From an uncultured Gammaproteobacteria bacterium (GTDB taxonomy: Bacteria > Patescibacteriota > Patescibacteriia > Magasanikbacterales > GWA2-37-8): a stretch of 64,000 bases of DNA. The stretch is from positions 229,460 to 293,459 of the forward strand of contig CAZXML010000001.1 of assembly GCA_964641245.1 (NCBI GenBank), given 5' to 3'. A model generated the notes under the pieces. That model saw only the letters and a list, made by a program, of their open reading frames with translations. It had not been told where the DNA came from and made no database searches. Positions 3,752-60,866 of the stretch are shown here, one piece after another; the stretch's first letter is position 1; every line of letters starts with the position of its first letter. The position numbers and the translations under genes were made by a program.

Positions 3752-4540
3752 CTACTTCAAAAAACCTATATACCATTGTAAAATCCGCTCTCCCCACAAC
3801 ATAGCTACAAACGTACCAAGCGCGAGGTACGTTCCAAACGGAATGGCGCTGGAAAGATGCTTTTTGCGGGATGCCAGGAGTAATAAGCCGACAAAAGCTC
3901 CGACTACATACGCGATAAATAAAGCCACCAGCGTTACCGGCCAGCCCAACCAAATGCCCATCATGACACCAAGTCTAACATCTCCTCCTCCTATCCATTT
4001 TCCGCTGGAAATGACGTATTGTAAAAAGAAAAATCCTCCGGCGATTAGCGCGCCGATTAGCATTGATAACAAGCTATGTCCCAAGAAAATATTAAAAAAT
4101 AATCCGGCCAGAGCGCCAAACCAAATTACCTGGGGTAAAATTTCCTGATACAAATAATCGTAGATAAAAATTACAATGAGCAAGGATACAAAGGTAAAAT
4201 CCCGCAAAAAAAGCGCAGGCTCAACTGCCCCGCTGTTTAAATTTTTCCAGGCCACAAGCACAAAAATTAAGGCCGTGCCAAACTCTACAAAAGAAAAGTG
4301 TTTGGGAATTGCCGCTTTACATGTTCGGCATTTCCCCCATAACACTAAATAACTCAAAACCGGAATATTTTCGTACCAGGTAAGCTGACGCCGGCAGGCG
4401 GGGCACATACTGCGGCCGTTAACAATTTTAAAATTTTCGTGAGCGCGCCAAATCCAGGAGTTTAAAAAACTGCCCAGCGCGAGGCCGAGGAAAAAAATTA
4501 TAAAGTAAAAAAATTGCCCGATATCGTCCAAGTAATTCAT
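3752..4540 (-). CDS. pilD: Type IV prepilin peptidase (A24 family, PilD-like).
   Basis: 262 aa polytopic membrane protein with an N-terminal CPxC...CxxC zinc motif (MCPACRR...CRTC) and a conserved A24 layout. It lies adjacent to the pilin gene. Confidence 0.8.
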   Translation of the reverse strand: MNYLDDIGQFFYFIIFFLGLALGSFLNSWIWRAHENFKIVNGRSMCPACRRQLTWYENIPVLSYLVLWGKCRTCKAAIPKHFSFVEFGTALIFVLVAWKNLNSGAVEPALFLRDFTFVSLLIVIFIYDYLYQEILPQVIWFGALAGLFFNIFLGHSLLSMLIGALIAGGFFFLQYVISSGKWIGGGDVRLGVMMGIWLGWPVTLVALFIAYVVGAFVGLLLLASRKKHLSSAIPFGTYLALGTFVAMLWGERILQWYIGFLK

Positions 4541-4571
4541 ACGGACTAATTATATCATAATCAATAAAATC

Positions 4572-4604
4572 CACAACAAAAAACCCATCTTGCGAAGGGT
4601 TTTT
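4572..4604 (-). terminator. Intrinsic terminator downstream of the pilin gene.
   Basis: On the minus strand the hairpin aaacccttcgcaagatgggttt is followed by a T-run, directly after the pilin stop. Confidence 0.55.
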
Positions 4605-4624
4605 TGTTTTAAACTAAGTTTAAA

Positions 4625-5065
4625 CTATTGTTGAGCTATACCGGATGGGCTAAGGGAAATTCCTCCGCTCAATCCGTTAACTGTTGTTTCTAAGTTAGCA
4701 GTTACGATGTAAGAACTGGAAGTTGCTAATGTGTAAACGTAAGATTGGGTTGCTAAAGGATCTGACGGGACTTGACCCATATACGGGCTGCCACATCCGA
4801 CGGTTGTAAAGCCAGAAGCGTTTAAACAAGCTTGGCCAGTGGCTCCCAATGTGACGCCAGCACCTGCCGGGTAGGCAGTTTGATCAGTATAGTAAAGTTC
4901 CAAAGCGGTTTGTAATTGTTTTAAGTCGGACAAACGGCGCGCATCGCGGGCTTTTTGTCTGGCGTTTCCTAAGGCTACTACAGCTAAGGTTGATAATAAA
5001 CCAATAATAGCTATAACCACCAACAATTCAATCAAAGTGAAACCTTTCTTGTTCATGTTTTTCAT
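4625..5065 (-). CDS. Type IV pilin (prepilin with class III signal peptide).
   Basis: N-terminus [32 protein letters not shown] is a canonical G|FTLIELLVV prepilin cleavage and hydrophobic segment. A GGAGGGGG RBS lies upstream. Confidence 0.85.
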
Positions 5066-5152
5066 AGTTTCACCCCCTCTCCATAATTAATTCTGACATC
5101 ATTTTGCATACTTGGATTACATTAGACACGTCGCCATCATTTCATCACTGTG

Positions 5153-5236
5153 GAGTATTAAGTATTAGGTAGTAAGTATTATGCGACAATTTCGACTTGT
5201 ACGCTTAATACATAATACTTGATACTTAATACTAAA
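5153..5236. repeat. Family D element: inverted arrays of the heptamers (AAGTATT)n ... (AATACTT)n.
   Basis: Sequence gagtattaagtattaggtagtaagtatt...cttaatacataatacttgatacttaatact. Near-identical elements lie at 20182-20270 and 50955-51031. Confidence 0.7.
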
Positions 5237-5263
5237 ATTGCGTTTCTATTATATCACATTAAA

Positions 5264-5662
5264 CTATTTTTTATGCAAGACCGCCCGAACTTTATCCACA
5301 ACCTCTGATGGTTTAAAGTGGGTTTTTAGTAAATAACCGGCGGCGCCTTCGTCCAACCCGCGCTTAACATCATCTTTTTGGCCAAGGTTAGTAAGTAAAA
5401 TTATAGGGATATTTTTTATGGATGCGTCCGCCTTGACCGCTTCTAAAACCGCAAATCCGTCTAATTTTGGCAAGAGAATATCCAGCAAAACGATATCGGG
5501 CCTCTTTTTTTTGATATCGCTCAACCCCTTTTCACCATTATTGGCCATACTTACTTTAAACCCCTCCATTTCAAATTTTTTCTGATAAATTTCCGCCAGG
5601 AAAACGTCGTCTTCCACAATTAAAACATGGGATTGATTGTCTGACATAATTAAAATTAGCAA
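5264..5662 (-). CDS. Stand-alone response-regulator receiver (CheY-like REC) protein.
   Basis: 132 aa with the acidic pocket (VEDD...DIVLLDILLP), conserved T/S (LLTN) and K (GAAGYLLK) of REC domains. It sits inside the pilus gene cluster (PilH-like position). Confidence 0.75.
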   Translation of the reverse strand: MLILIMSDNQSHVLIVEDDVFLAEIYQKKFEMEGFKVSMANNGEKGLSDIKKKRPDIVLLDILLPKLDGFAVLEAVKADASIKNIPIILLTNLGQKDDVKRGLDEGAAGYLLKTHFKPSEVVDKVRAVLHKK

Positions 5663-5712
5663 TTAACAATTAGCAATTAACAATTGTTGGTTGTTAATTG
5701 TTTTTTGTTCAT
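5663..5712. repeat. Family F hairpin element (caattaacaattg palindrome plus ttgttaattgttttttgtt).
   Basis: Tandem agcaattaacaatt units form a CAATTAACAA/TTGTTAATTG stem followed by T-runs. The same motif lies at 26402-26470. Confidence 0.55.
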
Positions 5713-5715
5713 TAT

Positions 5716-6867
5716 TTAAACAATATTCCGTAACGCCAAACCAATGGCCACGGACATGCGCGGCCCTATTTGGCGCAAAATCGGTTTCAACCCCTCCTGA
5801 TATACGACTCTGGCCCAAGAATCTCCTACATATGTTTTAATTTTAAATTTTTCTTGAATATACTTTGCCAGAAACGGCATCAAGGCCATTCCGCCGGTTA
5901 AAATAATTTTTTCGGGGCGCTTGCCTTCATTGCCGGTTTGACGCAAATATAATTCCAAACTGACTTCTACCTCCTTCATTATAGGATCTACCACCGGCAT
6001 TAAAATGTCCAGCCATTTTTGTTCGGTTAATATATTATTACTGGTCGCGGCCAGATAGTCAAATAAATCATGCTTAGCCTGCTCAACTAGATCGCGTTCA
6101 ACCCCTAAAATATTTTGTAAAACCTTGTCTATTTTATCGCCACCCGATTCTATGCTTTGATGAGTAATTGGCATGCCCTGGTCTATTATAAAAAAGTTTG
6201 TGCGTTCGGAACCGATGTCTATTATCATAGATAACGCCTGATCCCTGCCAACCAAACATCGAGACAAGGCCGTTGATTCGGGTTCCAACGCCTCTAAAGA
6301 CAATCCGGCGCGCTGGAAAATTTTGGAATAAAATTCTATGAGTTTATGCGGTACGGCATTTACCAAAACCCGCTGTGATTTATCTTCGGGCAAACCTTTT
6401 AACACCTGATAATCCAAGGCCATTTCTTCTAAAGGCATGGGCAATAATTTTTTTACTTCCGCTTTAACAATATGATCTAGTTCTTCTTTCTTTAATATAG
6501 GAAGCGTAACCACCGCGTGAAAAACAGATGAAACCGGCAGGCTGACAACCGCAGTTTTGGATATTATTCGAGACGATTTGCAAATCGCCTTAAGAGTGTT
6601 CGCGTATTTTTCTATTTGCGCCTCGTTGTCACCCTCCCCTTTTAGGGGAGGGACAGAGGGTGGGGTATTCGCGGAGTTTTGTTTCTCTAAAAGACCGGCG
6701 ATATTTTTTTCTTCATTGGCCGCAAGTTTATGGATATCCTGTTTGCCGGATGTTAAACCGTACGAAAACAAAACCGGCCTGTTTTTTTCCAGGCGTAATT
6801 CTACTAATTTTATTCCCCCGGACCCGATGTCTACTCCGAGAAAGGATTTTGGTTTATTCCAAAACAT
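5716..6867 (-). CDS. pilM: Type IV pilus assembly ATPase-fold protein PilM.
   Basis: N-terminus FLGVDIGSGGIKLVELR has an actin-like/PilM fold with acetate-kinase-like phosphate loops. It contains an in-frame ~45 nt repeat-derived insertion (NTPPSVPPLKGEGD). Confidence 0.75.
   Translation of the reverse strand: MFWNKPKSFLGVDIGSGGIKLVELRLEKNRPVLFSYGLTSGKQDIHKLAANEEKNIAGLLEKQNSANTPPSVPPLKGEGDNEAQIEKYANTLKAICKSSRIISKTAVVSLPVSSVFHAVVTLPILKKEELDHIVKAEVKKLLPMPLEEMALDYQVLKGLPEDKSQRVLVNAVPHKLIEFYSKIFQRAGLSLEALEPESTALSRCLVGRDQALSMIIDIGSERTNFFIIDQGMPITHQSIESGGDKIDKVLQNILGVERDLVEQAKHDLFDYLAATSNNILTEQKWLDILMPVVDPIMKEVEVSLELYLRQTGNEGKRPEKIILTGGMALMPFLAKYIQEKFKIKTYVGDSWARVVYQEGLKPILRQIGPRMSVAIGLALRNIV
6628..6675. 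repeat. Family C (GGGGAGRG hairpin) element copy lying in-frame inside pilM.
   Basis: ccctccccttttaggggagggacagagggtggggtattcgcgg aligns with 47050 (ctctccccttttaggggagagacagagagaggggtatcgcgg). Confidence 0.65.
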
Positions 6868-11422: not shown

Positions 11423-11535
11423 TTGTCATCCTGAACGTAGTGAAGGATCTCTGTCCGTCGTTTTTTTGCAAACCAGACAGAGATTCTTCTCCGTCCCGCC
11501 TAGGCAGGCGGATCAGAATGACAATTGACGAAACC
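11423..11535. repeat. Family A TGTCAT-type palindromic element (MITE-like).
   Basis: ttgtcatcctgaacgtagtgaaggatctctgtc...gacagagattcttc...cagaatgacaa. Confidence 0.8.
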
Positions 11536-11604
11536 CTGTATGAGTTATGGGTAAATACATTATACCACATTGTTGGCATACTTAAAATATGTTATAATAA
11601 TAAC

Positions 11605-12090
11605 ATGGCAATTGAACCTAAGGAATCAAATTTATCACCAATAACGGAAACAGAAATTAAGGCTCCACCCGAAGAGCTTGATTTGCAATTGGAAAAAGAG
11701 AGCGCCGAGGAAACAGAACCGGCGGAAGAAAAATTACCTCCGAAGCAAGTTAGCCCGCAACCGGCGCGGCCAATGCCAAAGCCAAGACCGGCCATGCCAC
11801 TGCCCGCCAAAGACGCAGTCATGGTCAAAATAGAAAAAATAATGGAAGAGGGGCTGAACGATTCTTTTCAACGTTTATCCCCTGTTGCCAAGCAGGAATT
11901 TAAATTAAAGGGCGAACAAGCGGCTTCTCAAATCAGAGAACTATTAAAAAGCACCCACGTAAAGGTTAAAAAAATCCTGCGTCTTATTTTGGATTGGTTA
12001 AGAATTCTGCCGGGCGTAAATCATTTTTTTCTAGAACAGGAGGCAAAAATAAAAACAGACAAAATTATCGCTTTAAAAAACAAAGTCTAA
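11605..12090 (+). CDS. Hypothetical Pro/Glu-rich protein.
   Basis: Probable true start MAIEPKESNL at 11605. The ORF-track start at 11440 lies inside the repeat element. No recognisable domains. Confidence 0.45.
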   Translation: MAIEPKESNLSPITETEIKAPPEELDLQLEKESAEETEPAEEKLPPKQVSPQPARPMPKPRPAMPLPAKDAVMVKIEKIMEEGLNDSFQRLSPVAKQEFKLKGEQAASQIRELLKSTHVKVKKILRLILDWLRILPGVNHFFLEQEAKIKTDKIIALKNKV

Positions 12091-12168: not shown

Positions 12169-14718
12169 ATGGATATTACTGTTATAACAGATTTTCTCAA
12201 CAATTTGCTGGCGAACAGTCTTTTTCTTTTATTATTTCCTCCCGCTTTTGGCCTAATTATTTTAATTTCTTTTTTATTTATTTTAAAATCAGTCTTTACG
12301 GCAAAAGGGCGCGAAAGCAAGGCTTTTCATAAAACAGTGCTGTTAATAAAAGTTCCTAAAGAAAAAAAGGGTGAAAAACCGGATTCAACCAGCGCGGAAG
12401 CCAATCTTAATCAAACCCGCGAAGAAGTAGCCGTGGCCGAAACTCTTTTCTCGGCCATAGCCGGTTTAAAAAGAGAAAGCGGTTTTATGGCCTGGTTGCG
12501 AGGCCGGAACGATCATGTTTCATTCGAAATTGTGGTAAAGGACAGCAAAATATCTTTTTATGTGGCCATGCCGGATAAAATTAAAGGTTTTCTGGAACAG
12601 CAAATTCACGCTCAATATCCTCATGCCGAAATCACCGAAGAACCGGACTACAATATTTTCAAACCGCAAAGCCATATTGTCGGCGCTTATCTTTGGTTAA
12701 AACACAAATCGGCTTTCCCGATTAAAACATACAAAAATCTGGAAGGAGACCCTTTGATTTCTCTGCTCAATCCGCTAAGTAAAATTCTGGAAGACGAAGG
12801 AGCTATAATTCAGGTTGTAGCGCGTCCGGCTACCACTAAATGGCGCAGTCAGGGTGTCCGCATGATTCGTGATATTAAAAAAGGAGAAAAATTTGAATAC
12901 GTTGCCAGACGCGGCAAAATAGGTCGCGCTATGGCCGGGTGGACAAAGGTAATTTTCCCAAAAAAGAAAGAGAACAGCGAACATCAAGGTGAAAAACAAT
13001 ACCAACTCACCCAAATGGAAGAAGAGATGGTGAAAAACATGGAAGAAAAAATAAGCCGGGGGGGACTGGAAACCACTATTCGATTGATAAGTTCGGCCAA
13101 CAGCAAAGAAAAGGCTGTGCTTAATCTGGAAAACATTATCAACGCTTTTAGTCAATATAATTTGTACCGCTACGGCAATACTTTTGCGGCCGCTGTTCCC
13201 CGCAAGCCCAACGCTCTCATCCGCGATTCTATTTACCGCACCATGCGTGAGGATAAATATATGGTTTTGAGTACGGAAGAAATGGCCGGTTTGTGGCACT
13301 TGCCTACTCCCAGCACCGAAACTCCCAACATCAACTGGCTGGGCGCGCGCAAGGCTCCGCCACCAACAAATATGCCCAAAGAAGGCATTATTTTGGGCCG
13401 GGCCGTATACCGCGGCGAAGAAACAGTCGTGCGCATGAAACGCGACGACCGGCGCCGACATTTATATACTATTGGTAAATCCGGTAGCGGTAAATCCGTA
13501 TTTATTCAAAATTTAGCTGTTCAGGATATTATTAACGGCGAAGGCGTTTGCGTTATAGACCCGCACGGAGATTTCGCCGAATATGTTTTACAGCACGTGC
13601 CAAAAGAAAGAGCCGAAGATGTTATTTATTTCAATCCTTCCGACACCGAACGTCCGATTGGTTTAAACATGCTGGAAATAAATACCGAGGAACAAAAAGA
13701 TTTTGCCACCCAGGAAATGATTGCAATTTTTTACAGACTGGTAACGGACCCAAGCATGATTGGCCCGATGTTTGAACACAATATGCGCAACGTAATGTTG
13801 ACTCTGATGGCCGACATGGTAAACCCAGGCACAATTGCCGAAATTCCCCGCATGTTTACCGATGATGATTTTGTAAAAGAATGGAAAGCGAAACTTACGG
13901 ACCCGATGGTACTGGCTTTCTGGGATAAAGAAATGGCCAAAACATCCGACTTCCATAAATCGGAAATGCTGGGTTATTTGATTTCTAAGGTGGGACGGTT
14001 TGTGGAAAACGCCATGATCCGCAATATCATCGGCCAGTCACACTCCGGGTTTAATTTCCGCGAAATAATGGATAAGAAAAAAATTCTGATTGTAAATTTG
14101 GCCAAAGGTTTGGTGGGAGAAATAAACTCCAACCTATTGGGTTTAATAATTGTTTCCAAACTGCAGATGACCGCATTGGAGCGCGCATCTATGCCGGAAG
14201 AACAACGCAATGATTTTTATTTATACATAGATGAGTTCCAAAACTTTATCACCGAATCTATTGCCACTATTCTTTCCGAAGCGCGCAAATATCGTTTGGA
14301 GCTTATCATTGCGCATCAATATATGAAACAACTGGAAGACAATAAAGGTAAAACCACTGTGCGTGATGCCGTTTTGGGAAATGCCGGCACCATAGTTTCT
14401 TTCCGTATTGGCGTAGAAGACGCGGAAATTTTGGCTAAAGAATTCGCTCCGGTGTTTAGCGCCTACGATTTGGTGAACGTGGAGCAATATACCGCTTACG
14501 CCAAACTTTTAATTGACAATACCGCCGCTAAGCCGTTTAATATGTTTACCTATCCGCCCCGTGCCGGCAACAAAGAGCTGGCTGCAGCCATCAAAGAACT
14601 CTCCAGGCTGAAGTACGGACGGCCCAGAGAAATTGTGGAAGCGGAAATAAATGAACGCGCGCAGTTGGGTGTAGCTGTGTCTGAAGGAGAAACGACTACG
14701 AGCGAGGCGACACTTTAA
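12169..14718 (+). CDS. Membrane-anchored type IV secretion-like ATPase (VirB4/TraC-VirD4 superfamily, AAA_10/TraG-D_C-like C-terminal half).
   Basis: 849 aa with N-terminal TM helices. Walker A TIGKSGSGKS falls near residue 447 and Walker B is YLYIDEFQNF. The post-Walker-B motif ARKYRLELIIAHQYMKQL fits the (A)RK...hhhh(T/H)Q...QL signature of T4SS ATPases. The N-terminal ~440 aa are paralogous to 18610-20013. Confidence 0.6.
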   Translation: MDITVITDFLNNLLANSLFLLLFPPAFGLIILISFLFILKSVFTAKGRESKAFHKTVLLIKVPKEKKGEKPDSTSAEANLNQTREEVAVAETLFSAIAGLKRESGFMAWLRGRNDHVSFEIVVKDSKISFYVAMPDKIKGFLEQQIHAQYPHAEITEEPDYNIFKPQSHIVGAYLWLKHKSAFPIKTYKNLEGDPLISLLNPLSKILEDEGAIIQVVARPATTKWRSQGVRMIRDIKKGEKFEYVARRGKIGRAMAGWTKVIFPKKKENSEHQGEKQYQLTQMEEEMVKNMEEKISRGGLETTIRLISSANSKEKAVLNLENIINAFSQYNLYRYGNTFAAAVPRKPNALIRDSIYRTMREDKYMVLSTEEMAGLWHLPTPSTETPNINWLGARKAPPPTNMPKEGIILGRAVYRGEETVVRMKRDDRRRHLYTIGKSGSGKSVFIQNLAVQDIINGEGVCVIDPHGDFAEYVLQHVPKERAEDVIYFNPSDTERPIGLNMLEINTEEQKDFATQEMIAIFYRLVTDPSMIGPMFEHNMRNVMLTLMADMVNPGTIAEIPRMFTDDDFVKEWKAKLTDPMVLAFWDKEMAKTSDFHKSEMLGYLISKVGRFVENAMIRNIIGQSHSGFNFREIMDKKKILIVNLAKGLVGEINSNLLGLIIVSKLQMTALERASMPEEQRNDFYLYIDEFQNFITESIATILSEARKYRLELIIAHQYMKQLEDNKGKTTVRDAVLGNAGTIVSFRIGVEDAEILAKEFAPVFSAYDLVNVEQYTAYAKLLIDNTAAKPFNMFTYPPRAGNKELAAAIKELSRLKYGRPREIVEAEINERAQLGVAVSEGETTTSEATL

Positions 14719-17286: not shown

Positions 17287-18138
17287 ATGTCTCAAATTAT
17301 CGACGGAAAACTCATTGCGGCAAAAATAGAGACGGAAATTGCTTCGCGCATTGAAGCTCTAAAACAAACGGGTATTACTCCAAAGTTGGCCGTTGTTTTG
17401 GTTGGCGAAGACCGGCCATCTCGGATTTATATCAAAAGAAAGAAAGAAGCGGCGGAACGTGTGGGTATTAATTTTGAATTACATGAATTACCGGAAGATA
17501 TAGAAAAAAACGAGCTTATTAAAACCGTACAAAAAATACAGCAGGATCCCCTGCTTACCGGACTGATAATTCAGCTTCCCCTGCCGGAGCGTTTGTATGT
17601 GCCGGAAGTACTTAACGCAATTAATCCAAATATAGACGTTGACTGTCTGACGGATTGCAATATCGGCAAGCTTGTAATGAAAACAAATTTGATTGAACCA
17701 CCAACTCCTTGGGCTGTCATTAAAACTTTAAAAGAAATTAATTTTGACTTGGCCGGAAAAAATGCCATTATTATCGGCACCGGCGCGCTGGTGGGCAAAC
17801 CTCTGGCCATAATGCTGGTAAACGAACTGGCCAGTGTAACCACCTGTAATAGCCGGACTAGAGATATAAAAAATAAATGCCTAAACGCGGATGTGATTAT
17901 TTCCGCTGTGGGCAAAAAAGATATTGTTACGGCCGATATGGTAAATGATGGCGCTGTGGTAATTGATACCGGTATTGTTTACGACAACGGAAAAATGCGC
18001 GGCGATGTTGATTTTGCCAATGTTTCTTCAAAAACCAGCTTCATCACTCCCACCCCGGGCGGAATCGGCCCCATTACCGTTGCCAAACTTCTTCTAAATA
18101 CCACTATTTGCGCGGAAAAGATAAACGGTATACTATAG
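17287..18138 (+). CDS. folD: Bifunctional methylenetetrahydrofolate dehydrogenase/cyclohydrolase FolD.
   Basis: MSQIIDGKLIAAKI...YIKRKKEAAERVGI plus a GxGxxVG Rossmann region. The ORF-track start at 17227 overlaps the tRNA and is rejected. Confidence 0.9.
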   Translation: MSQIIDGKLIAAKIETEIASRIEALKQTGITPKLAVVLVGEDRPSRIYIKRKKEAAERVGINFELHELPEDIEKNELIKTVQKIQQDPLLTGLIIQLPLPERLYVPEVLNAINPNIDVDCLTDCNIGKLVMKTNLIEPPTPWAVIKTLKEINFDLAGKNAIIIGTGALVGKPLAIMLVNELASVTTCNSRTRDIKNKCLNADVIISAVGKKDIVTADMVNDGAVVIDTGIVYDNGKMRGDVDFANVSSKTSFITPTPGGIGPITVAKLLLNTTICAEKINGIL

Positions 18139-18152
18139 ATAAGGAGGCTGGT

Positions 18153-18350
18153 ATGGCGACAAAAAACTTGCCTTGCGGCAAAAAAGTTGGAATTGAGAAA
18201 GGCAATTGTGACGGCGAACTCATTCTAATTGACGGATCGCAGTCGCGCACTCGTGTGCGTTGCAATAAGTGCGGTAGGGTAGTTATTTTAAAAATGTCGT
18301 TACTGCAATTTGCCCAATTTTTGAAAGAAAAACAGGATTTAAAAAAGTAG
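18153..18350 (+). CDS. Small 4-Cys zinc-ribbon protein (hypothetical).
   Basis: A strong RBS (aaggagg) precedes MATKNLPCGKK...NCDG...RCNKCG. Confidence 0.45.
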   Translation: MATKNLPCGKKVGIEKGNCDGELILIDGSQSRTRVRCNKCGRVVILKMSLLQFAQFLKEKQDLKK

Positions 18351-18372: not shown

Positions 18373-18576
18373 ATGAAACCATGGCAAACAGACTGGCAGA
18401 TTGAAGTTCTTTTAGGAAAAGTGGTGATGCACGATTGCCTGTATTGCAACCAAAGAACAGTTTACCATCTGACCATAATTCTGGATGGAAAAACAAATTT
18501 TAAGCGCTACAAATGGCTGTGCAGTGTATGTGGAGGCGTGATCTATGAAAAGCTTGGATTATTTGAGCCAAATTAA
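18373..18576 (+). CDS. Small 4-Cys zinc-ribbon protein (hypothetical), in tandem with the previous one.
   Basis: An RBS (aaggag) precedes CLYC...CSVCGG. Confidence 0.45.
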   Translation: MKPWQTDWQIEVLLGKVVMHDCLYCNQRTVYHLTIILDGKTNFKRYKWLCSVCGGVIYEKLGLFEPN

Positions 18577-18581
18577 GAGTT

Positions 18582-18612
18582 GACGGACTCTCCAAAACCG
18601 TCATTTTTTTTA
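18582..18612 (+). terminator. Intrinsic terminator.
   Basis: gacggactctccaaaaccgtc followed by attttttttagg. Confidence 0.55.
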
Positions 18613-20013
18613 GGCGAAAGGCAATTCTGCCAGCGGTGTTTCTTTCGGCTCTTCTTCCACAGCCTGTTGAACCCTTCTTTTTAACGGACTCTCGGTCATT
18701 TCTTCTATAGGCAAATTAATAGGCGGCTCGGCGCGTTTGCTGGCCGTTTTTTGTAATAGAGGGGCTTTAACCAACGGCAACGGGAAGTGCCACAAAGTAG
18801 CCAGCTCTTGGATATTTAATATATACGGATTTTTACCGGTTCTGATTTTTCTCTTTTTAAACGCGCTGACGAATCTTCTTTTAATTTCCAACGTGCGGTA
18901 ATCTCCAAAAGCATAATGAGCCTTGGTGGCCAGTACGGGTATGATAGCGTTGCGTCCGCTATAATTAAATTGATTCATAGCACCGATGAGGCCGTCCAGA
19001 CAACGGCTGGGATTGAATATTTCCTTTGGCGCGGCATATAAAACCCGGCACTTTATTTTGAAGCCGATTTTGGAAATTTTTTCTTCAATGGCCGCAACGG
19101 TATCTCTTACACCCGGAGTAAGGTCGGAAATTTTTCCGGGCATTTCTTCTTTTTTCTTAATAACCGGCCCCTCGGCCGGCGGACGGATGGCGTTTAAAAG
19201 CTCTTCCACGATAACATTAATAATTTTAAACAGAAAAAACTGCTCGGACACGTGCTTTTTATTGGTAATGATTTTTTTGATGAGCTCTATGCCTTTGGCT
19301 TTCCATGCTTCCGAAATCGGCTCTACAATAATTTGAAACCAAAGATTTTCTCCGGCGCCAATACGCGTAAAATTTTCCAAAATAGCGGCCATGGGGTCAT
19401 TGAATGTATAGTCGGGAGTAATACTGTGTTCAAATTCCGAGTAGGTTCGGATTGGGTATGGATCCGGAGCCGCTAGGCCAAATTCTAAACCGAAAATTTC
19501 GTGGGTTTCGTTTGGGTATTTGCCGGGAATAGCGCCGACATAATCCTCTACTTCGGTGATTTCGGCCATTGGATACTGGGCGTAAATGGCTGCTTCTACC
19601 AAATCTCGGTAATTGGCTTCGGTATAAATTAAAAATTGAATATAACCTTCTAAACTTATAATTTCCAAACTAAACCACCGCTGTTTTACTCCCTGCCAGT
19701 ATTTTTGCCCGATATTTGGCTCAAAAAGAGCGCCGCTAAGATGAGAAAAAATCTGTTCAACCGCTTTTGGGCTTTGAATGGTGTCTGTGGGAACATCAAC
19801 GGCCAGCACAATCCATTCCCATGTGCTTGTGTATTTTGCCTGCCGTACTTTAACCCAAAGTTCCATGCCCATAAAAAAGAAGATTAGGGCCACAATCGCC
19901 CACCCGACAATAGCAAAAATAGCCGACACTCTTTGGTCTGTTGGCAAATTTAAAATTTGGCTCCACAAGGAAAAATCTATAACAATGCCAAAAGGCAGTT
20001 CCGAAACCGGCAT
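18610..20013 (-). CDS. Membrane protein paralogous to the N-terminal (non-ATPase) half of the 12169-14718 T4SS-like ATPase.
   Basis: 467 aa. Blocks align with the ATPase N-half: SLEIISLEGYIQFLIYTEANYRDLVEAAIYAQYPMAEITEVEDY matches SFEIVVKDSKISFYVAMPDKIKGFLEQQIHAQYPHAEITEEPDY, and NIQELATLWHFPLP matches STEEMAGLWHLPTP. There is no Walker motif. Confidence 0.7.
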   Translation of the reverse strand: MPVSELPFGIVIDFSLWSQILNLPTDQRVSAIFAIVGWAIVALIFFFMGMELWVKVRQAKYTSTWEWIVLAVDVPTDTIQSPKAVEQIFSHLSGALFEPNIGQKYWQGVKQRWFSLEIISLEGYIQFLIYTEANYRDLVEAAIYAQYPMAEITEVEDYVGAIPGKYPNETHEIFGLEFGLAAPDPYPIRTYSEFEHSITPDYTFNDPMAAILENFTRIGAGENLWFQIIVEPISEAWKAKGIELIKKIITNKKHVSEQFFLFKIINVIVEELLNAIRPPAEGPVIKKKEEMPGKISDLTPGVRDTVAAIEEKISKIGFKIKCRVLYAAPKEIFNPSRCLDGLIGAMNQFNYSGRNAIIPVLATKAHYAFGDYRTLEIKRRFVSAFKKRKIRTGKNPYILNIQELATLWHFPLPLVKAPLLQKTASKRAEPPINLPIEEMTESPLKRRVQQAVEEEPKETPLAELPFA

Positions 20014-20014
20014 A

Positions 20015-20176
20015 TTATTTTTTTACAATGCTAAATACACCGCCGTAAATTATAAGGACACCAAAAATAGTCCACCACCAGCCGTATTGGCTGGATACCC
20101 AACCGCTATAATAGGCTAACGCGCAAATAATAGCCGCGCATAGCGCTACCATGTGTCGAATTGCATTATCGGACAT
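20015..20176 (-). CDS. Possible 53-aa membrane peptide translationally coupled to the downstream gene.
   Basis: MSDNAIRHMVALCAAIICALAYYSGWVSSQYGWWWTIFGVLIIYGGVFSIVKK, with the stop overlapping TAAtATG. No clear RBS. Confidence 0.3.
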   Translation of the reverse strand: MSDNAIRHMVALCAAIICALAYYSGWVSSQYGWWWTIFGVLIIYGGVFSIVKK

Positions 20177-20181
20177 ACAAC

Positions 20182-20270
20182 TAAGTATTAAGTATTAAGT
20201 ATTACGTATAAAGTATTATGAATCAAATATCGCTTTTACCTTAATACTTAATACATGATACTTGATACAA
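20182..20270. repeat. Family D heptamer inverted-array element.
   Basis: ctaagtattaagtattaagtattacgtataaagtatt...ccttaatacttaatacatgatacttgataca. Confidence 0.7.
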
Positions 20271-20348
20271 GTAACTTTTATAATTATACCACACCCCATA
20301 AAACAAAACAAAACCCGCTTTTGGCAGGTTCTGCTATGAAATAAGGTA

Positions 20349-21263
20349 TTATGCTCTTCTGCGTTCTTGCCAATTATACACCACCACCAGGAGCGGGCTG
20401 GCGATGAAAATAGAAGAATAGGCGCCGCTGGCGATACCGATTAGTAAAGCTAGGACAAAATAATGGATACTGGCTCCGCCGATAATAAATAAGGCTATGA
20501 GCGGTAATAGAGTCTTGAAGGTTGTGTTAATGGAGCGCATTAAGGTTTGGTTTAAACCCATATTGACCACATCGGAAAAATTATCTCCGCCGTGTCTTTG
20601 CAGGTTTTCACGGATGCGATCGTACACCACGATTGTATCGTTAACAGAGTACCCCAGCACCGTAAGGATTGCGACTATGAAAGCGGTGTCTATCTCTACG
20701 CCTAAATATCTGCCCAACACGGCAAACACGCCCATTACCAGCAAAACGTCATGAAAAAGGGCCACAATGGCCAGCACGCCGTATTTCCAGCTGGCTACCG
20801 GCCGGGATACTTTTCTGAAGGCGTAGGCGACGTAAATGATTATACCCAGAAGAACAAATACAAAGGCATAAGACGCTTTTGACTTTAACTGACTGCTGAT
20901 AGAAGCGCCGATGGTTTGAAAACTGCCTTCATTAATTTGGTTGTCTTGTGTTTGTAGCTTGCTTTTGACTTCACCTAAAACGCGCTGATGTTCTTCTTCA
21001 GATAGAAAGTTTGTGCGGACAATAATTCCGTTATCCCCTGTTTTTTGAATGGAAGTATTTTTTAAATCCAACTCATCAAACACTTTTTGAATTTCAACTG
21101 TTTCCGGTCTGGTGGTAAAGGATAGTTCCAACAACGAACCGCCGGTGAAATCAATTCCCGGTTTTAAACCCCACATCGCCAGAAATACCACACAAACAAC
21201 GGTAATCAGTCCGCTGACTACCAACCACAACTTGGAATATTTTATAAATGGAATGTTTCTCAT
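20349..21263 (-). CDS. secF: Protein-export membrane protein SecF.
   Basis: 304 aa with SecF topology and motifs. It immediately follows secD. Confidence 0.9.
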   Translation of the reverse strand: MRNIPFIKYSKLWLVVSGLITVVCVVFLAMWGLKPGIDFTGGSLLELSFTTRPETVEIQKVFDELDLKNTSIQKTGDNGIIVRTNFLSEEEHQRVLGEVKSKLQTQDNQINEGSFQTIGASISSQLKSKASYAFVFVLLGIIIYVAYAFRKVSRPVASWKYGVLAIVALFHDVLLVMGVFAVLGRYLGVEIDTAFIVAILTVLGYSVNDTIVVYDRIRENLQRHGGDNFSDVVNMGLNQTLMRSINTTFKTLLPLIALFIIGGASIHYFVLALLIGIASGAYSSIFIASPLLVVVYNWQERRRA

Positions 21264-21272
21264 AGGGGCGAA

Positions 21273-23033
21273 TTATTTAGTAACTGTTAATTCTTCTTTT
21301 TTTCTGTGTCCCAAAAACAATATATTCCCCCGTTCGTTCATCCACGGCAAAACAAGTCTCATAATTGTTCTTGTTAAAATGATGGCGGAAAACATACTTA
21401 CCAGCACGCCGATTGCCAGCGTGACGGCAAAGCCCTGTACAAATCCTGTTCCCATCCAGACCATAAAGAAACAACTAATAAGCGTGGTGATGTTGCTGTC
21501 TCTGATGGACGGCCAGGCCCGAACAAACGCCTCTTCAGCGGCAGATTTAAGACTTCGTCCTTCTCTTAGTTCTTCTTTAAGCCGCTCAAATATAAGCACG
21601 TTGGCATCTACGGCCATACCTATAGATAAGATGAAGCCGGCCATACCGGACAATGTAAGGGTTACGCCGATTAATTTGAATAAAGCAAGAGTTAATAAAG
21701 TGTAAATACATAAAGCAATAGAAGCCAGGAATCCAGGCAATCTATAATACAATATCATATATATAAGTACGGCAATTAAACCATAAATACCGGCCAAGAG
21801 GCTTTTTTGCATGGATTCGGCTCCTAATGTAGCGCCTACTTTTTGCTGGCTGATTAAATCCACCGGGACCGGCAAGGCGCCGGAGTTTAAACGCTGGGCC
21901 AAAAGTTTGGCTTCTTGGATAGAAAAACTGCCGGAAATTACGGCGCTACCGTTTAAAATCGGCTCATTAACTCGCGGGATGCTAACCGGGGTTCCGTCCA
22001 AAAATATGGCAACCAACTTGCCGGTACTGCGCTTGGTGATATCGGCAAATAATTGTGTGCCTTCGTCATTGAATTGCAAAGCCACTTGAACCTGACCGGT
22101 GCGGGAATCCTGACTTACTTCAGTTCTTTTTAATTGTTTGCCGGATAAACCGGTTTCCTTCCATTGTTCGGATGGCGGTACGATATCTATCGGTTGTTTT
22201 GTTTGTACAAAAATTCTGGCAATAGTATAAAGAGTCGTGCTGGCGGATACTGACCCGCCGTCTCCTTGTTGTGAAGAAATTCTTTGTACTATATTCAAAC
22301 CGTCAAAACTTTTTACCAGTTCTGTGCTGACATCGCCGTCTTTGTGAAGACCTGCCCATTTATAAATATCCGGGAAAACCGAATTGTCTATTAAACCAAC
22401 CACTCCGGCTTCGGCTTTAGATTTTTCGTCTTCGGAATATTGTGTTACCGCATCGGCAAAACTCATACCGCCTTTTATAGCGACAAGCGCTTCATTGGCT
22501 TTCTTTTGCGCCGCGGCGTTATAATCGTTCATTTCTTTTGTCTCTGCGGCTGTAAGCGGTCTTAAAGGTTCGTTATTTTCTTCTTTAAATTCTAAAATAG
22601 GAGTTTCACCAATCATTTTTATGGCCTGATTAACGTCGGTAATGCCCGGCAATTCTACAATTACCCGATAATCATTGCCGACTTTGGTTGTTTGCACCAA
22701 CGGCTCGGACACGCCCAAACCACCGCGCACCCGGCGTTCAATTACATCGCGCACGCCTTCTACGGCGCTGGCTCTGTCCGCGTCCGGAATCAATGCGGTA
22801 TCAGCCTGATATATAAGATGGGCGCCACCTTGTAAATCCAGCCCCAAATTAAACCCGGCTGACGGAAAATTAGGAATGCCTAAGTTCGCTTTTTTATTAA
22901 CCCAATCTATGCCTCGGTTAGCGTAAACCGGAAATACTATTAGCAGACAAAAGACAGTTAAAACAAAAATAGCAAAAACACGCCATTTCAGGTTTTCTCT
23001 GGACAAAGGTTTTGGTTGGTTTCTTACGGCCAT
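21273..23033 (-). CDS. secD: Protein-export membrane protein SecD.
   Basis: 586 aa with a large periplasmic domain and a C-terminal 6-TM RND-like domain. Confidence 0.9.
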   Translation of the reverse strand: MAVRNQPKPLSRENLKWRVFAIFVLTVFCLLIVFPVYANRGIDWVNKKANLGIPNFPSAGFNLGLDLQGGAHLIYQADTALIPDADRASAVEGVRDVIERRVRGGLGVSEPLVQTTKVGNDYRVIVELPGITDVNQAIKMIGETPILEFKEENNEPLRPLTAAETKEMNDYNAAAQKKANEALVAIKGGMSFADAVTQYSEDEKSKAEAGVVGLIDNSVFPDIYKWAGLHKDGDVSTELVKSFDGLNIVQRISSQQGDGGSVSASTTLYTIARIFVQTKQPIDIVPPSEQWKETGLSGKQLKRTEVSQDSRTGQVQVALQFNDEGTQLFADITKRSTGKLVAIFLDGTPVSIPRVNEPILNGSAVISGSFSIQEAKLLAQRLNSGALPVPVDLISQQKVGATLGAESMQKSLLAGIYGLIAVLIYMILYYRLPGFLASIALCIYTLLTLALFKLIGVTLTLSGMAGFILSIGMAVDANVLIFERLKEELREGRSLKSAAEEAFVRAWPSIRDSNITTLISCFFMVWMGTGFVQGFAVTLAIGVLVSMFSAIILTRTIMRLVLPWMNERGNILFLGHRKKEELTVTK

Positions 23034-50947: not shown

Positions 50948-50954
50948 GCGACAA

Positions 50955-51031
50955 GTATAAAGTATTAAGTATTAGGTATTAAGTATTTAACAAATATTCC
51001 CATAATACTTGATACATAATACTTAATACTT
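50955..51031. repeat. Family D heptamer inverted-array element.
   Basis: gtataaagtattaagtattaggtattaagtatt...cataatacttgatacataatacttaatactt. Confidence 0.7.
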
Positions 51032-57142: not shown

Positions 57143-60100
57143 TTAAATTTCACGGTTCGGAACGGCTTCTACTTCATTAGAAGCCGCACTCTCGCCGTTG
57201 GCATTTACCGCTGTCACTTTATAACGGTACCTGGTCCCGTTAGTCAGCCCCGTGTTATTGAACGAGGTAGAACTGCCGTTTAGAGTCGTGTAAACAAGGC
57301 TGTAGAAGTCAAAAAACAAATATGTCTTTCTATATACTTTATAACTAGTTATGGCCGAACCGCCATTGCTGGCCGGCGCATTCCAGGCCATTTGAACACT
57401 TCCACTACCAACACCGGTTACCACCAAATTCTGTGGAGCGGAGAGAGCGGGAGTTAAAGTTACATATTGAAAATGCTCTGGGTCAGTAATGATTGCGTTT
57501 ACATCTATTATATCATGCAAAGATAAGGTGGTTGCCGGTTTATTGATATTAAAGACCTGCCAATAGCGGGCGTTTTGGTTATCCGAAGGAGACGCGGATT
57601 GGAAAAAATACGTTTTTGCCGGCGTACCAAAATGATACGGATTTGTGTCGGTGTCCGGTAAATATATCTCTACTTTTAATTTAACCGTGTTTTTAAAGGT
57701 TCTAATTGGATAACTGGGCGAGCGCACATAAAACGCATAGGTGTTGCCAGACATCGCAGACGTATCAATTGTAAATGCTTCAGAATCAGTTTGGCCGGGA
57801 GTGGCTGTAAAACCGTGATACCAAATTCCATACGCTTCTGAATTGGGCGTGCTGTAATAGTTTATACCGGTGGCGTAATTCTTTTGCGAAGCCTCGCATA
57901 CATTCAGGTAACAATATGACGGCCCTTCTATTTCGGGATTAACAATAAACGGATTCAAAACACCGCTATAAAAATCTCCGGAACCTACCCAGCTGGTAAC
58001 AATCCGTAAATCATGGGCGCGCAAAGTGCTGGAAATCACCGGCGATAATACCAAGTCATACTGCCAAGGTTGTGGTTCGGCTACCACTCGAAAATTTAAT
58101 GGCCGAGCCCAATCATAATTAACATACATTTGATACTTTTTTTCCGGATTAGCATCCGCTGAACAGATTGGGTCGCTGGCGATTATAGCTTTCATATAGT
58201 CGAACGTTACATCACGAGATCCTAAATTATCAGGTTTGCGTAGGGTGTAAGACATAAAATCCATGGAGGTGTCATTTTTTATATCTAAGCCCACAAGCGA
58301 TGCAAAAGTGTTGCTGCCAATCGCCAAACCAAGTGAGCCACCACCTGTTATTTTCTTGGCAAAAAGCGGATCTGGAGTAAGGCCTGTTCCGGAGAAACTG
58401 TCCCATAAGGCATTCTCCAAAACATTAACCACATTCCCATGCACTTCTACTCCATCAGAAACTACTCCGCATGTCACGCAATTTCTAACTACACCCACCG
58501 AACAATCCGCGCAGCTCTTAGCGCCTTTTTTTATAGTGCGCGGATCTTTTGACTCGGCCGAGCAGGCCAATTCTTGATAACCGTTACGGCCAGGGGTTTT
58601 TAAAACTTCTGTTCTGCCGGTAGTAGACGCGGATGAGAAAATATTTTCTTCAAACACCTCGCATTTTTCCGGACTTTGAATAACACCATCGCCACAATAC
58701 TGGCCGGGTTGAACATCGATTGTGTTTTGGCAATCAGAAGAACAATAAGAACAAGGTTTGCCATAAGCGGGAGTGCAAACGTGGCCATTATTGACCAGTC
58801 CTTGGTCGCACGTTTCACCGGCATCTACTATATTATTACCACAACTGCCGACAGGTAGAACGGGTGTTAGTGTGCTGGTGGCGGCGCAAAACCAACCACT
58901 TTGATAATTATTTTGCACTTCCGAGGCCGACAAGGCGCGATTGTAGATTTTAACTTCGTCTAAACTGCCAAAGAAGTAATTACCACTGCCAACTGGAGCA
59001 GATTTACCAATGACTAAATCCCCTGTGCCTACTGCCATTATGGCCGTATCACTACTGACAGTATTTGTATTTTCTAAAACGCCATTAACATAAATCTTAG
59101 TAATATGGCTGTTACCATTTCTTGAATATGTACCCACCACATGCGTCCAAGTATTGGTGGCGATACTGCTGTTTGAATCAACTACTGCAGTTTGTAAATT
59201 ATTATTCCACAAGTTAAAACGGATATTATGCAGGGTAGTAGAGGCATTAAATTCTAAATCGTAACTCCTAAACCCAAACGGCCCTTCCTTTTCCACAATT
59301 CTCTGATAAGGATAAAGAGCACGCTCATCTTCAGTAGGATAAATCCACGCTTCTACCGTTAATGAGCTGGTGGCTACCAAACTAAAACTAGGACTGCTTT
59401 TCGCAATTAAATATCGCCGACCAAAAGACGAACCAAACTCAAAGCCATGACCATATTTACCCGTGCCCACCACCGGACAAGCGCGGGCTTTGTTGTCGCA
59501 AATGGCATTATTGCCATTAACCGAACTGTCGTCTGTTCTATATACGCCGACCAGATCATTTTCAAACCGCCACCAAGCCACCGCGTCTCTGTCTTTTTTT
59601 AAACAATTACTGCCACAAACTTTTGTACCCGGATTTCCATCTACCGAACAAGTTTGCGAACCGTCGCATGTTTCTCCATACTGGGTTTGGATAATACTGT
59701 CACCACAATACGGTCCCCAGTTTTGGCAATCCCAACTGCAGGAATTATTTCTGGAAATTAAACTATATTTTTCCACTCCAGGCGTGACTGGATCGCAAAC
59801 TTCATAAGCCTCTTGCAAGTGACCGTCTCCACATCTGCCCGGTGTAGGACTATCGACCGGACCTGTACAGCTAATATTGCAATGATTATATTTCCCATTT
59901 AAAAAAGTTCCATCGTCACAAGTTTCACCGGCCTCCAATGCGCCATTTCCACAATGACTAAACTTGCTACACAAAGTGGTAGACGGCGGGCCCCACTTAC
60001 AACTACTATTACAAACTTTTAAATTTTTAAGAGGTGGCACCGCGCTACTGCATCCGGCCTCGTATTCTATTCTGCCGGGCGGATCGCACTGTTCGCCTTT

Positions 60101-60712
60101 ATTTAAATTTAATTTCCCGTCTCCGCAAACACCGGATTCCATTGTGGAAATTTCCTCATTATAATTACAGACACCGCTACTGTCGCTGATTTTAAAAATG
60201 GTGGTGCTAATAAAACTGGCCACAAAACTTTCGTCATTTGCCGGTGAAATTCCGTCATCTTCAAATTTGGCGCGCACAGTATAAACTCCGGGCGTGGTGG
60301 AAACTATATACCGGTAGGCGTAAGAATCTTTGGAGCAGGCAAAACTGAAGCGTCTATTCGCAACGCTCCAGCCGGTTTCCGGACTGTGCAGAACGCAGGT
60401 TTCATTAGCCGCGGTATCCGGCGGTTTGCAATCATTATCACTTAAACAAAACCGATTAGTGCTAATAACGCAGGTACCCGCCGGGGACAGTTGATTTATC
60501 GGGTCGGTAGGGAAAGCGACACCCGCGGCATTCCCTAATAATGACCATGATGGCCAGACACTTAAAGTCTGTCCGGTTAAATAGGTTCCTTCTTTTAGGG
60601 TGGGAGCGGTGGCGGCTACAACTTTTTGGTATACAAAAAAACTAAGTGTCGCCACCATTACCAAAGAAAGAAAAATTAATTTTTTTGTTTTCATACAACT
60701 ATTATACCACAA
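57143..60712 (-). CDS. Giant secreted surface protein with Myxococcus-type Cys-rich repeats, a LamG/ConA-like domain and a C-terminal FN3 domain.
   Basis: Signal peptide; at least six CxxCGDG/CGNG...GE.CD repeats (for example CGDGKLNLNKGEQCDPPG, CGNGALEAGETCDDGTF); LamG signature LDEVKIYNRALSASEV; FN3 region (PQNLVVTGVGSGSVQMAWNAP...YRYKVTAVNANGES). Confidence 0.75.
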   Translation of the reverse strand: MWYNSCMKTKKLIFLSLVMVATLSFFVYQKVVAATAPTLKEGTYLTGQTLSVWPSWSLLGNAAGVAFPTDPINQLSPAGTCVISTNRFCLSDNDCKPPDTAANETCVLHSPETGWSVANRRFSFACSKDSYAYRYIVSTTPGVYTVRAKFEDDGISPANDESFVASFISTTIFKISDSSGVCNYNEEISTMESGVCGDGKLNLNKGEQCDPPGRIEYEAGCSSAVPPLKNLKVCNSSCKWGPPSTTLCSKFSHCGNGALEAGETCDDGTFLNGKYNHCNISCTGPVDSPTPGRCGDGHLQEAYEVCDPVTPGVEKYSLISRNNSCSWDCQNWGPYCGDSIIQTQYGETCDGSQTCSVDGNPGTKVCGSNCLKKDRDAVAWWRFENDLVGVYRTDDSSVNGNNAICDNKARACPVVGTGKYGHGFEFGSSFGRRYLIAKSSPSFSLVATSSLTVEAWIYPTEDERALYPYQRIVEKEGPFGFRSYDLEFNASTTLHNIRFNLWNNNLQTAVVDSNSSIATNTWTHVVGTYSRNGNSHITKIYVNGVLENTNTVSSDTAIMAVGTGDLVIGKSAPVGSGNYFFGSLDEVKIYNRALSASEVQNNYQSGWFCAATSTLTPVLPVGSCGNNIVDAGETCDQGLVNNGHVCTPAYGKPCSYCSSDCQNTIDVQPGQYCGDGVIQSPEKCEVFEENIFSSASTTGRTEVLKTPGRNGYQELACSAESKDPRTIKKGAKSCADCSVGVVRNCVTCGVVSDGVEVHGNVVNVLENALWDSFSGTGLTPDPLFAKKITGGGSLGLAIGSNTFASLVGLDIKNDTSMDFMSYTLRKPDNLGSRDVTFDYMKAIIASDPICSADANPEKKYQMYVNYDWARPLNFRVVAEPQPWQYDLVLSPVISSTLRAHDLRIVTSWVGSGDFYSGVLNPFIVNPEIEGPSYCYLNVCEASQKNYATGINYYSTPNSEAYGIWYHGFTATPGQTDSEAFTIDTSAMSGNTYAFYVRSPSYPIRTFKNTVKLKVEIYLPDTDTNPYHFGTPAKTYFFQSASPSDNQNARYWQVFNINKPATTLSLHDIIDVNAIITDPEHFQYVTLTPALSAPQNLVVTGVGSGSVQMAWNAPASNGGSAITSYKVYRKTYLFFDFYSLVYTTLNGSSTSFNNTGLTNGTRYRYKVTAVNANGESAASNEVEAVPNREI

Positions 60713-60720
60713 AGTATTAC

Positions 60721-60845
60721 ATTGTCATCCCGAGCGAGTGGTTGTCATCCTGAATGTAATGAAGGATCTCTGTCTCAATCGCCGAACGGACAGAGATTCT
60801 TCGCTTCACTCAGAATGACAAGTGGTGTGCGGTCAGAATGACAAA
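60721..60845. repeat. Composite family A element with nested partial ends.
   Basis: ttgtcatcccgagcgagtgg is followed by ttgtcatcctgaatgtaatgaaggatctctgtctcaatcgccgaacggacagagattcttcgcttcactcagaatgacaa, then gtggtgtgcggtcagaatgacaa. Confidence 0.85.
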
Positions 60846-60866
60846 CAATAAAACAGAACGGCAGGT

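Follow-up and report, generated by a model that had tools for sequence, protein, structure and literature searches.

What does a protein do that carries the membrane-proximal half of an ATPase and lacks the motor? The question is raised by a 64,000-nucleotide (nt) stretch of DNA (contig CAZXML010000001.1 of assembly GCA_964641245.1, positions 229,460 to 293,459; here called the window), a housekeeping stretch of a Patescibacteria chromosome whose nearest public relatives are named Candidatus Magasanikbacteria. We refer to the 467-amino-acid (aa) product of the minus-strand gene at 18610 to 20013 as A and to the 849-aa product of the plus-strand gene at 12169 to 14718 as B. Because a gene for a soluble VirD4-like ATPase lies directly downstream of genes of the A type in 60 of 62 informative metagenome loci from other Patescibacteria, we read A as the non-catalytic subunit, a membrane anchor or adaptor, of an ATPase of the VirB4/VirD4 class that is encoded by two genes and found widely in Patescibacteria, a reading to which we give a probability of roughly 0.6. 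The parts of A and B that matter to the argument are the following.

18610 to 20013, minus strand: gene A, a 467-aa DUF8128-only protein predicted to cross the membrane once, N-out/C-in (open reading frame [ORF] and translation; PF26449 on an identical public protein; ratio of nonsynonymous to synonymous substitution rates [dN/dS])
19843 to 19938, minus strand: transmembrane helix of A, aa 26 to 57 (the sole Kyte-Doolittle segment at or above 1.6; a long helix at 24 to 61 in the AlphaFold2 model)
18778 to 19827, minus strand: DUF8128 core of A, aa ~63 to 412, alpha/beta, with a predicted fold like that of the VirB4 N-terminal domain
18613 to 18777, minus strand: disordered C-terminal tail of A, aa 413 to 467, with the linker KRAEPPINLP (aa 425 to 434) and terminal ELPFA (predicted local distance difference test [pLDDT] and conservation)
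12169 to 13386, plus strand: N-half of B, aa 1 to 406, a transmembrane helix and the paralogous DUF8128 domain (BLASTP to A; precomputed PF26449; AlphaFold2 model)
13387 to 14718, plus strand: C-half of B, a VirD4/TrwB-type P-loop ATPase with an all-alpha insertion

A is a paralogue of the N-terminal half of B

BLASTP aligned A with B at 100 bits (E value of 2e-26, 25% identity over 360 columns, A 86 to 437 against B 91 to 405), and the alignment contains both pairs of blocks that the preliminary description of the window had quoted, YAQYPMAEITEVEDY / HAQYPHAEITEEPDY and LATLWHFPLP / AGLWHLPTP. That description had named shuffled controls as the decisive check, and 200 residue shuffles of A scored against B reached at most 26.9 bits (mean of 18.5, standard deviation of 2.2). 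As had been proposed, A and the N-terminal ~400 aa of B are true paralogues, and no third paralogue was found within the window. The claim that A has no NTPase motif was also borne out, with no P-loop in the protein and no NTPase family matched in Pfam and NCBIfam scans. The C-half of B, on the other hand, matched PF10412, PF02534, PF12696, and DUF87 in Pfam, which marks it as a VirD4/TrwB-type ATPase. Of two features of type IV coupling proteins, a P-loop domain of the PF10412/PF02534/PF12696 families and an all-alpha insertion, B has both and A has neither.

The region shared by the two proteins corresponds to the Pfam family PF26449 (DUF8128), which precomputed Pfam annotation lists for P0001, a protein identical to A, and for the 849-aa B. 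Local Pfam and NCBIfam scans assigned A to no family and local Pfam was likewise silent on the N-half of B; the evidence for this family is the precomputed annotation of identical proteins, not local hmmscan. The region had previously been called a membrane domain, a label that does not fit, since each protein has one hydrophobic segment (aa 26 to 57 in A, aa 12 to 47 in B) followed by a large soluble alpha/beta domain of, in A, ~350 aa. Because acidic residues precede the helix of A and K55, R57, and K60 follow it (read from the sequence), the positive-inside rule predicts an N-out/C-in orientation that would place the DUF8128 domain in the cytoplasm.

The AlphaFold2 model of A, for which 109 sequences were aligned, had a pLDDT of 81 and a predicted template modeling score of 0.75, and the model of B shows its secondary-structure elements in the same order. 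When the A model was compared to the PDB with Foldseek, the top 14 matches were all chains of TrwK, the VirB4 protein of plasmid R388 (E values of 1.8e-5 to 1.8e-2, 13 of them below 1e-3), and the modeled fold is that of the TrwK/VirB4 N-terminal domain (residues 15 to 400). At the sequence level, neither A nor the DUF8128 profile found anything meaningful in the PDB, the best match being polyomavirus VP1 with an E value of about 1. Because its N-terminal domain has a VirB4-like fold and its motor is VirD4-like by Pfam, B is, as modeled, a hybrid in architecture: a single transmembrane helix comes first, then the VirB4-N-terminal-like domain, and last the VirD4-like motor.

The tail of A falls below a pLDDT of 50 from aa 422 onward. 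Within it, K425, E428, P429, P430, L433, and P434 are nearly invariant, and these residues also occur in the linker of B. After a variable acidic and proline-rich stretch, A-type proteins end in the motif PP(A/E)(N/D/E)LP(F/Y)(G/A), which is common to those encoded next to an ATPase and to orphans such as A; we infer from this shared ending that both may have retained a common partner. One A-type subclade ends in ...TDSG...(E/K)(Y/F)G instead, and ELPFG is also present in the N-terminus of A.

Split and fused forms of one ATPase

The gene that typically accompanies A-type genes was evident in five loci from more distant genomes (L064, L066, L072, L074, and L080), where a DUF8128-only ORF is followed immediately, on the same strand, by a separate ORF for a soluble VirD4/TrwB-like ATPase of 556 to 648 aa. 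All five ATPases matched PF10412, PF12696, and DUF87, four also matched PF02534, and the Pfam match begins within the first 50 residues. Soluble ATPases of this kind match these type IV coupling protein families (PF10412/PF02534/PF12696) and not AAA_10 or P-loop_TraG. To extend the sample, metagenomes were scanned using the linked proteins as seeds, and loci with at least 1,500 nt of downstream sequence were considered informative (n = 62). In 60 of them a soluble ATPase gene lies 3' of the DUF8128-only gene, on the same strand and 23 to 417 nt away. The encoded proteins share 51 to 72% identity with the soluble ATPase P0162 in matches that begin at its residue 2 to 20, mostly 13 to 20, and the split point of the two-gene form is the very domain boundary at which the halves of B join. 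Many soluble ATPases of the partner type end in a treble-clef zinc finger (PF23477), including three of the five linked ones (L064, L072, and L074); in L085 a treble-clef finger is encoded by a separate 97-aa gene (13506 to 13799) two genes downstream of the ATPase.

A is 40 to 45% identical to the DUF8128 proteins linked to an ATPase and 25% identical to the N-half of B, and because of this difference it belongs, by sequence, to the split lineage and not to that of B. The C-half of B is itself only 41 to 44% identical to the soluble ATPases. Domain fission, one of the origins that had been suggested for A, stands insofar as split and fused forms of one two-module enzyme coexist, and no further.

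The family is large. A was matched by 2,015 of 8,000 scored candidates, each representing a 90%-identity cluster, and when 1.84 billion representatives of 50%-identity clusters were searched with a profile, 4,269 proteins were retrieved at an E value of ≤1e-3 and 1,299 at ≤1e-30. The best 150 of these 4,269 matches are all 354 to 691 aa long, i.e., standalone proteins. With the N-half of B as query only 41 matches were obtained, mostly fragments, a number that is no measure of how widespread the fused form is.

In the Magasanikbacteria clade, the soluble ATPase gene is not adjacent to A. Metagenome-assembled genomes named Magasanikbacteria contain abundant soluble, DUF8128-less ATPases that are 65 to 85% identical to P0162. 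Two of them (L082 and L085) are found in unrelated housekeeping contexts, and in L038 the soluble ATPase gene lies 7 kb downstream of A. Synteny of L082 and L085 with the window was limited, besides folD and a weaker, paralogous match of the ATPases to B, to a PEP-utilizers-like gene (80 to 307) at the edge of the window with no ATPase beside it. The complete order of small membrane protein, N-domain protein, and ATPase is seen in L066 and L072, the same order without the small peptide in the 60 metagenome loci, and the window has the first two genes and no downstream ATPase. By analogy with the linked loci, A would associate physically with a soluble ATPase, and that ATPase would be present in the genome from which the window derives.

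A conserved membrane peptide and leader upstream of A

The region upstream of A contains the following features.

20015 to 20176, minus strand: pep53, a conserved 53-aa two-helix membrane peptide with a 1-nt spacer to A (homologues upstream of A; two hydrophobic segments)
20183 to 20263, strand not assigned: inverted array of AATACTT/AAGTATT heptamers in the 5' leader of pep53-A (repeat count; RNA fold)
20283 to 20335, minus strand: terminator-like hairpin after secF (20307 to 20335), followed by an extended -10 element, TGgTATAAT (20283 to 20291; read from the sequence)
20349 to 23033, minus strand: secD-secF, conserved upstream neighbors and apparently a separate transcription unit (SecD/SecF family matches)

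The comparison covered 80 species-level genome loci whose A proteins are 40 to 79% identical to that of the window. Homologues of pep53 were found directly 5' of A in 67 of the 80, mostly 2 to 15 nt from its ATG, so the small membrane peptide noticed in the preliminary description is real; its stop codon and the start of A, said to overlap, are one base apart (TAA-T-ATG). The family is characterized by a GWWWT motif and the two hydrophobic segments, and it is also found in the two loci L066 and L072, in which A is followed by the ATPase gene. The order secD, secF, pep53, A is widespread as well (SecF in 68 and SecD in 66 of the 80 loci), with SecF mostly immediately upstream of pep53-A, and most of the loci in which secD, secF, or pep53 was not detected are truncated contigs. 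Among the metagenome loci, 43 of 63 have SecF 1.3 to 2.3 kb upstream.

The heptamer element reported before the gene is also present, as AATACTT repeats at 20183 to 20263. AATACTT/AAGTATT matched 22 times in the window against 0.9 expected, with intergenic clusters at 5153 to 5234, 20183 to 20263, and 50953 to 51031, and the leader RNA upstream of pep53 folds into a hairpin of -26.5 kcal/mol (z of -3.0). The spacers between secF and pep53 in related genomes hold other heptamer palindromes of their own (e.g., L042, L014, L030, L040, and L048). The layout of a hairpin followed by TGnTATAAT between secF and pep53 recurs in most related loci. Because the terminator-like hairpin and the extended -10 element separate it from secF, pep53-A appears to be a transcription unit of its own, at the level of consensus sequence elements.

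As a small two-helix protein encoded directly upstream of a VirB4-N-terminal-like gene, pep53 has the topology and position of VirB3/PrgI proteins. Comparison by hhalign gave probabilities of 0.4% for TrsC/PrgI and 3.8% for TrwM/VirB3, and Pfam returned only sub-threshold matches to generic membrane-helix families. A WWW string common to pep53 and TrwM was not significant. The case for pep53 as a VirB3 counterpart, made by analogy, is weak because its sequence resembles none of VirB3, PrgI, and TrsC and because pep53 is missing from most split loci, being present in only 2 of 73.

Proposed role of A and alternatives

The arrangement that we propose is modeled on R388, in which the N-terminal domains of VirB4 are embedded in the membrane, where they hold the motor, are wrapped by the two-helix VirB3, and bind the tails of VirB8 (PMC9259494; PMC12857230). 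A would cross the membrane once, N-out and C-in; the DUF8128 domain of ~350 aa would lie on the cytoplasmic side, and a flexible tail with the conserved short motif at its end would come after it. By analogy with VirB4, A would recruit a soluble hexameric VirD4-like ATPase to the membrane and organize it there. B would be a single-chain version of the same device. In Magasanikbacteria, the ATPase gene would have moved elsewhere, and A would be coexpressed instead with pep53, which has the genomic position and topology of VirB3. Among the functions suggested earlier for A, that of a partner or regulatory subunit of an ATPase is thus the best supported in its first part, while the likeliest partner is the soluble VirD4-like ATPase seen in the 60 loci and not the neighboring B.

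Several results weigh against the anchor reading. The only ATPase near A in the window is B, which carries a DUF8128 domain itself, and the 64 kb contains no soluble ATPase gene, no VirD4-like ATPase other than B, and no ATPase remnant. The similarity of DUF8128 to VirB4 is, on the models, structural only, as the DUF8128 profile had no match by hhalign in TrwK (0.4% probability) or in TrsD (0.4%) and TrsE of plasmid pGO1, and the Pfam scan of A gave no match to PF03135 (CagE_TrbE_VirB).

The main alternative is that A pairs with B itself through contacts between their N-terminal domains, as a catalytically dead outer subunit or as a regulator. The two proteins share the domain, their genes are 4 kb apart in the window and no more than 10 kb apart in 25 of the 80 genomes, the protomer interface of the R388 VirB4 dimer is formed by N-terminal domains alone (PMC9259494), and the cognate ATPase gene is no longer adjacent to A in the Magasanikbacteria lineage. 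In those 25 loci the ATPase half of B is mostly 83 to 94% identical (71 to 92% in a few more distant ones) and A mostly 50 to 67%. We nevertheless consider this pairing unlikely, given that A and B are only 25% identical, that they are divergently transcribed with housekeeping genes between them, that A-type genes elsewhere are overwhelmingly linked to a different, soluble ATPase, and that for 55 of the 80 loci the ~10 kb fetched to either side of A held no B-type gene. It is still less probable that A and pep53 are accessories of SecDF or of Sec export, independent of any VirD4-like ATPase. Both are membrane proteins and the linkage to secD and secF described above is extensive, at a distance even in the further metagenome loci, but a terminator-like hairpin and a separate promoter stand between secF and pep53 in most loci, the link to the ATPase gene is far tighter and more widespread, and the domain of A is predicted to be cytoplasmic, whereas SecDF works on the outer face of the membrane.

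That A might be a functionless, decaying remnant of a duplication or fission, as had also been suggested, would agree with its lack of a catalytic half and of an adjacent ATPase gene in the Magasanikbacteria lineage. This explanation is very improbable and we reject it, because the gene is under purifying selection and conserved: dN/dS values against L002, L003, and L005 are 0.09 to 0.15 (at dS values of >1.5, near saturation), the ORF is complete and intact in 77 of the 80 loci, that is, in every one where it is whole, and the family counts 4,269 cluster representatives. Across A-type proteins and the N-half of B, 16 positions are invariant, including those in the AQYPxAEITE and ELAxxWHxP blocks, and ~85 are nearly so, and the upstream peptide, the promoter layout, and the C-terminal motif are all conserved. 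The anchor reading thus remains the one that we favor.

Comparison with known systems

VirB4 is the closest structural relative of the DUF8128 module, with several differences. The N-terminal domain of TrwK has no detectable sequence similarity to DUF8128, whose proteins have a transmembrane helix of their own, and the ATPase attached or adjacent to DUF8128 scores as VirD4/TrwB and not as VirB4 type, with no VirB3, VirB6, or VirB8 genes nearby. Family scans likewise revealed no relaxase or type IV secretion system (T4SS) genes near A or in the window. Type IV coupling proteins (VirD4/TrwB/TraD), in turn, have a two-helix N-terminal membrane domain, whereas here there is one helix and a 350-aa VirB4-N-terminal-like domain, fused or as a separate gene; they are also associated with relaxases and T4SSs, unlike A and B.

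The gene order of pGO1 provides the best parallel to the split form. There, trsC (VirB3-like) is followed by trsD, encoding a 227-aa VirB4-N-terminal-like protein, and trsE, a VirB4 ATPase matching P-loop_TraG/AAA_10, so that a standalone protein related to the VirB4 N-terminus lies between a small membrane protein and an ATPase, as do the A-type genes between pep53 and the ATPase in L066 and L072. The parallel has its limits, since TrsD is shorter than A and has no profile similarity to DUF8128, and TrsE is of the VirB4 type and encoded inside a conjugation cluster, whereas A lies among housekeeping genes, with its ATPase gene unlinked in the lineage of the window, and not next to virB4. In Patescibacteria, no T4SS component is more abundant than the homologues of TrsD, whose genes usually adjoin virB4 (PMC12102498).

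Fusions of the B type also occur on plasmids of Bacillales. An 883-aa protein of Shouchella clausii (NZ_CP012476, our L169) and a 938-aa protein of Bacillus amyloliquefaciens (NZ_CP076118, our L087) combine a DUF8128-like domain with a DUF87/type IV coupling protein-like ATPase, and hhalign related their N-terminal domains to DUF8128 with probabilities of 98% (E value of 6e-14) in one case and 96% (E value of 4e-9) in the other. Each fusion gene has a Replic_Relax gene next downstream (region 8860 to 12407 of L169 and 8588 to 12392 of L087), and the Shouchella copy belongs to a Tcp-type conjugation locus that separately encodes an AAA_10 VirB4-like ATPase. These fusions thus sit at the coupling-protein position for DNA transfer, in contrast to the chromosomal housekeeping setting of A and B, and finding the fused architecture there, in single-membrane bacteria, hints at an ancestral role in DNA transfer. 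On the plasmid from Bacillus, the fusion gene overlaps at its start with a 50-aa ORF, to which pep53 showed no similarity. MOB-suite labels both plasmids non-mobilizable. The similarity to EccE of mycobacterial type VII secretion was of another order, with a much weaker score, only part of the domain aligned, no sequence similarity, and a different system.

In a recent survey of Patescibacteria, 5,713 VirD4-like homologues were counted in 2,918 genomes, only 148 of them near virB4, and exaptation was raised as a possibility (PMC12102498). B and the soluble ATPases very probably form part of this set, for which that survey contains no description of an N-terminal module (PMC12102498). The family of A has an entry already, under the heading of domains of unknown function (DUF8128), and our literature search found no paper on DUF8128 or PF26449; a search on the absence of FtsK from members of the candidate phyla radiation, bearing on the idea of an FtsK substitute, returned nothing relevant. 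As far as the available literature shows, the predicted VirB4-N-terminal-like fold of DUF8128 is new, as are, judging from gene order and sequence comparison, the split/fused relation with VirD4-like ATPases as the apparent normal state in Patescibacteria and the unlinked, orphan state with its added 53-aa membrane peptide in Magasanikbacteria.

These VirD4-like coupling protein homologues number about two per Patescibacteria genome, and almost none of them are encoded close to a T4SS (PMC12102498). Our results would give them an anatomy, in the form of a membrane-proximal VirB4-N-terminal-like module supplied by the same chain or by a separate conserved gene, and give DUF8128, with its more than 4,000 clusters, a testable role in which a specific protein-protein complex is predicted. 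They also point to an architectural bridge between the VirB4 and VirD4 families of ATPases, whatever the cargo, DNA or protein, may be. A broader and rather doubtful possibility is that DUF8128 and the VirD4-like ATPase, split or fused, make up a T4SS-independent and near-universal core membrane translocase of Patescibacteria, an evolutionary link between VirB4 and VirD4 that was exapted for a housekeeping task (e.g., taking up or segregating DNA, or delivering substrates alongside Sec) and whose anchor in Magasanikbacteria would be independently regulated and have its own small membrane partner.

Neighboring genes in the window

The neighbors of A in the window are SecDF, FolD, DnaX, and CorA. 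SecD (21273 to 23033, minus strand) has a parvulin-type peptidyl-prolyl isomerase domain (PF00639 Rotamase, aa 166 to 251) inserted between SecD_1st and P1-head, which also appears in the JGI annotation and would equip the export motor with a foldase of its own on the periplasmic side. Directly upstream of B, a 216-aa ORF (11440 to 12090, plus strand) encodes a protein whose middle part is charged and rich in proline and whose C-terminal end is hydrophobic; it had no Pfam or NCBIfam match, its position is kept in 10 related loci, and it is a possible partner of B. Two small plus-strand ORFs of the cysteine-rich CxxC type (18108 to 18350 and 18373 to 18576), with no Pfam match, lie between folD and the 3' end of A, and L002, the closest genome, was the only one with detected homologues of them. 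On the minus strand, at 3752 to 6867 and 57143 to 63908, the window also contains type IV pilus genes (prepilin peptidase A24 and PilM) and two very large surface-type proteins, one of 1,189 aa with Laminin_G_3 and fn3 domains and one of 1,013 aa with Big_5, which fit the pilus and adhesin repertoire of epibiotic Patescibacteria such as Saccharibacteria.

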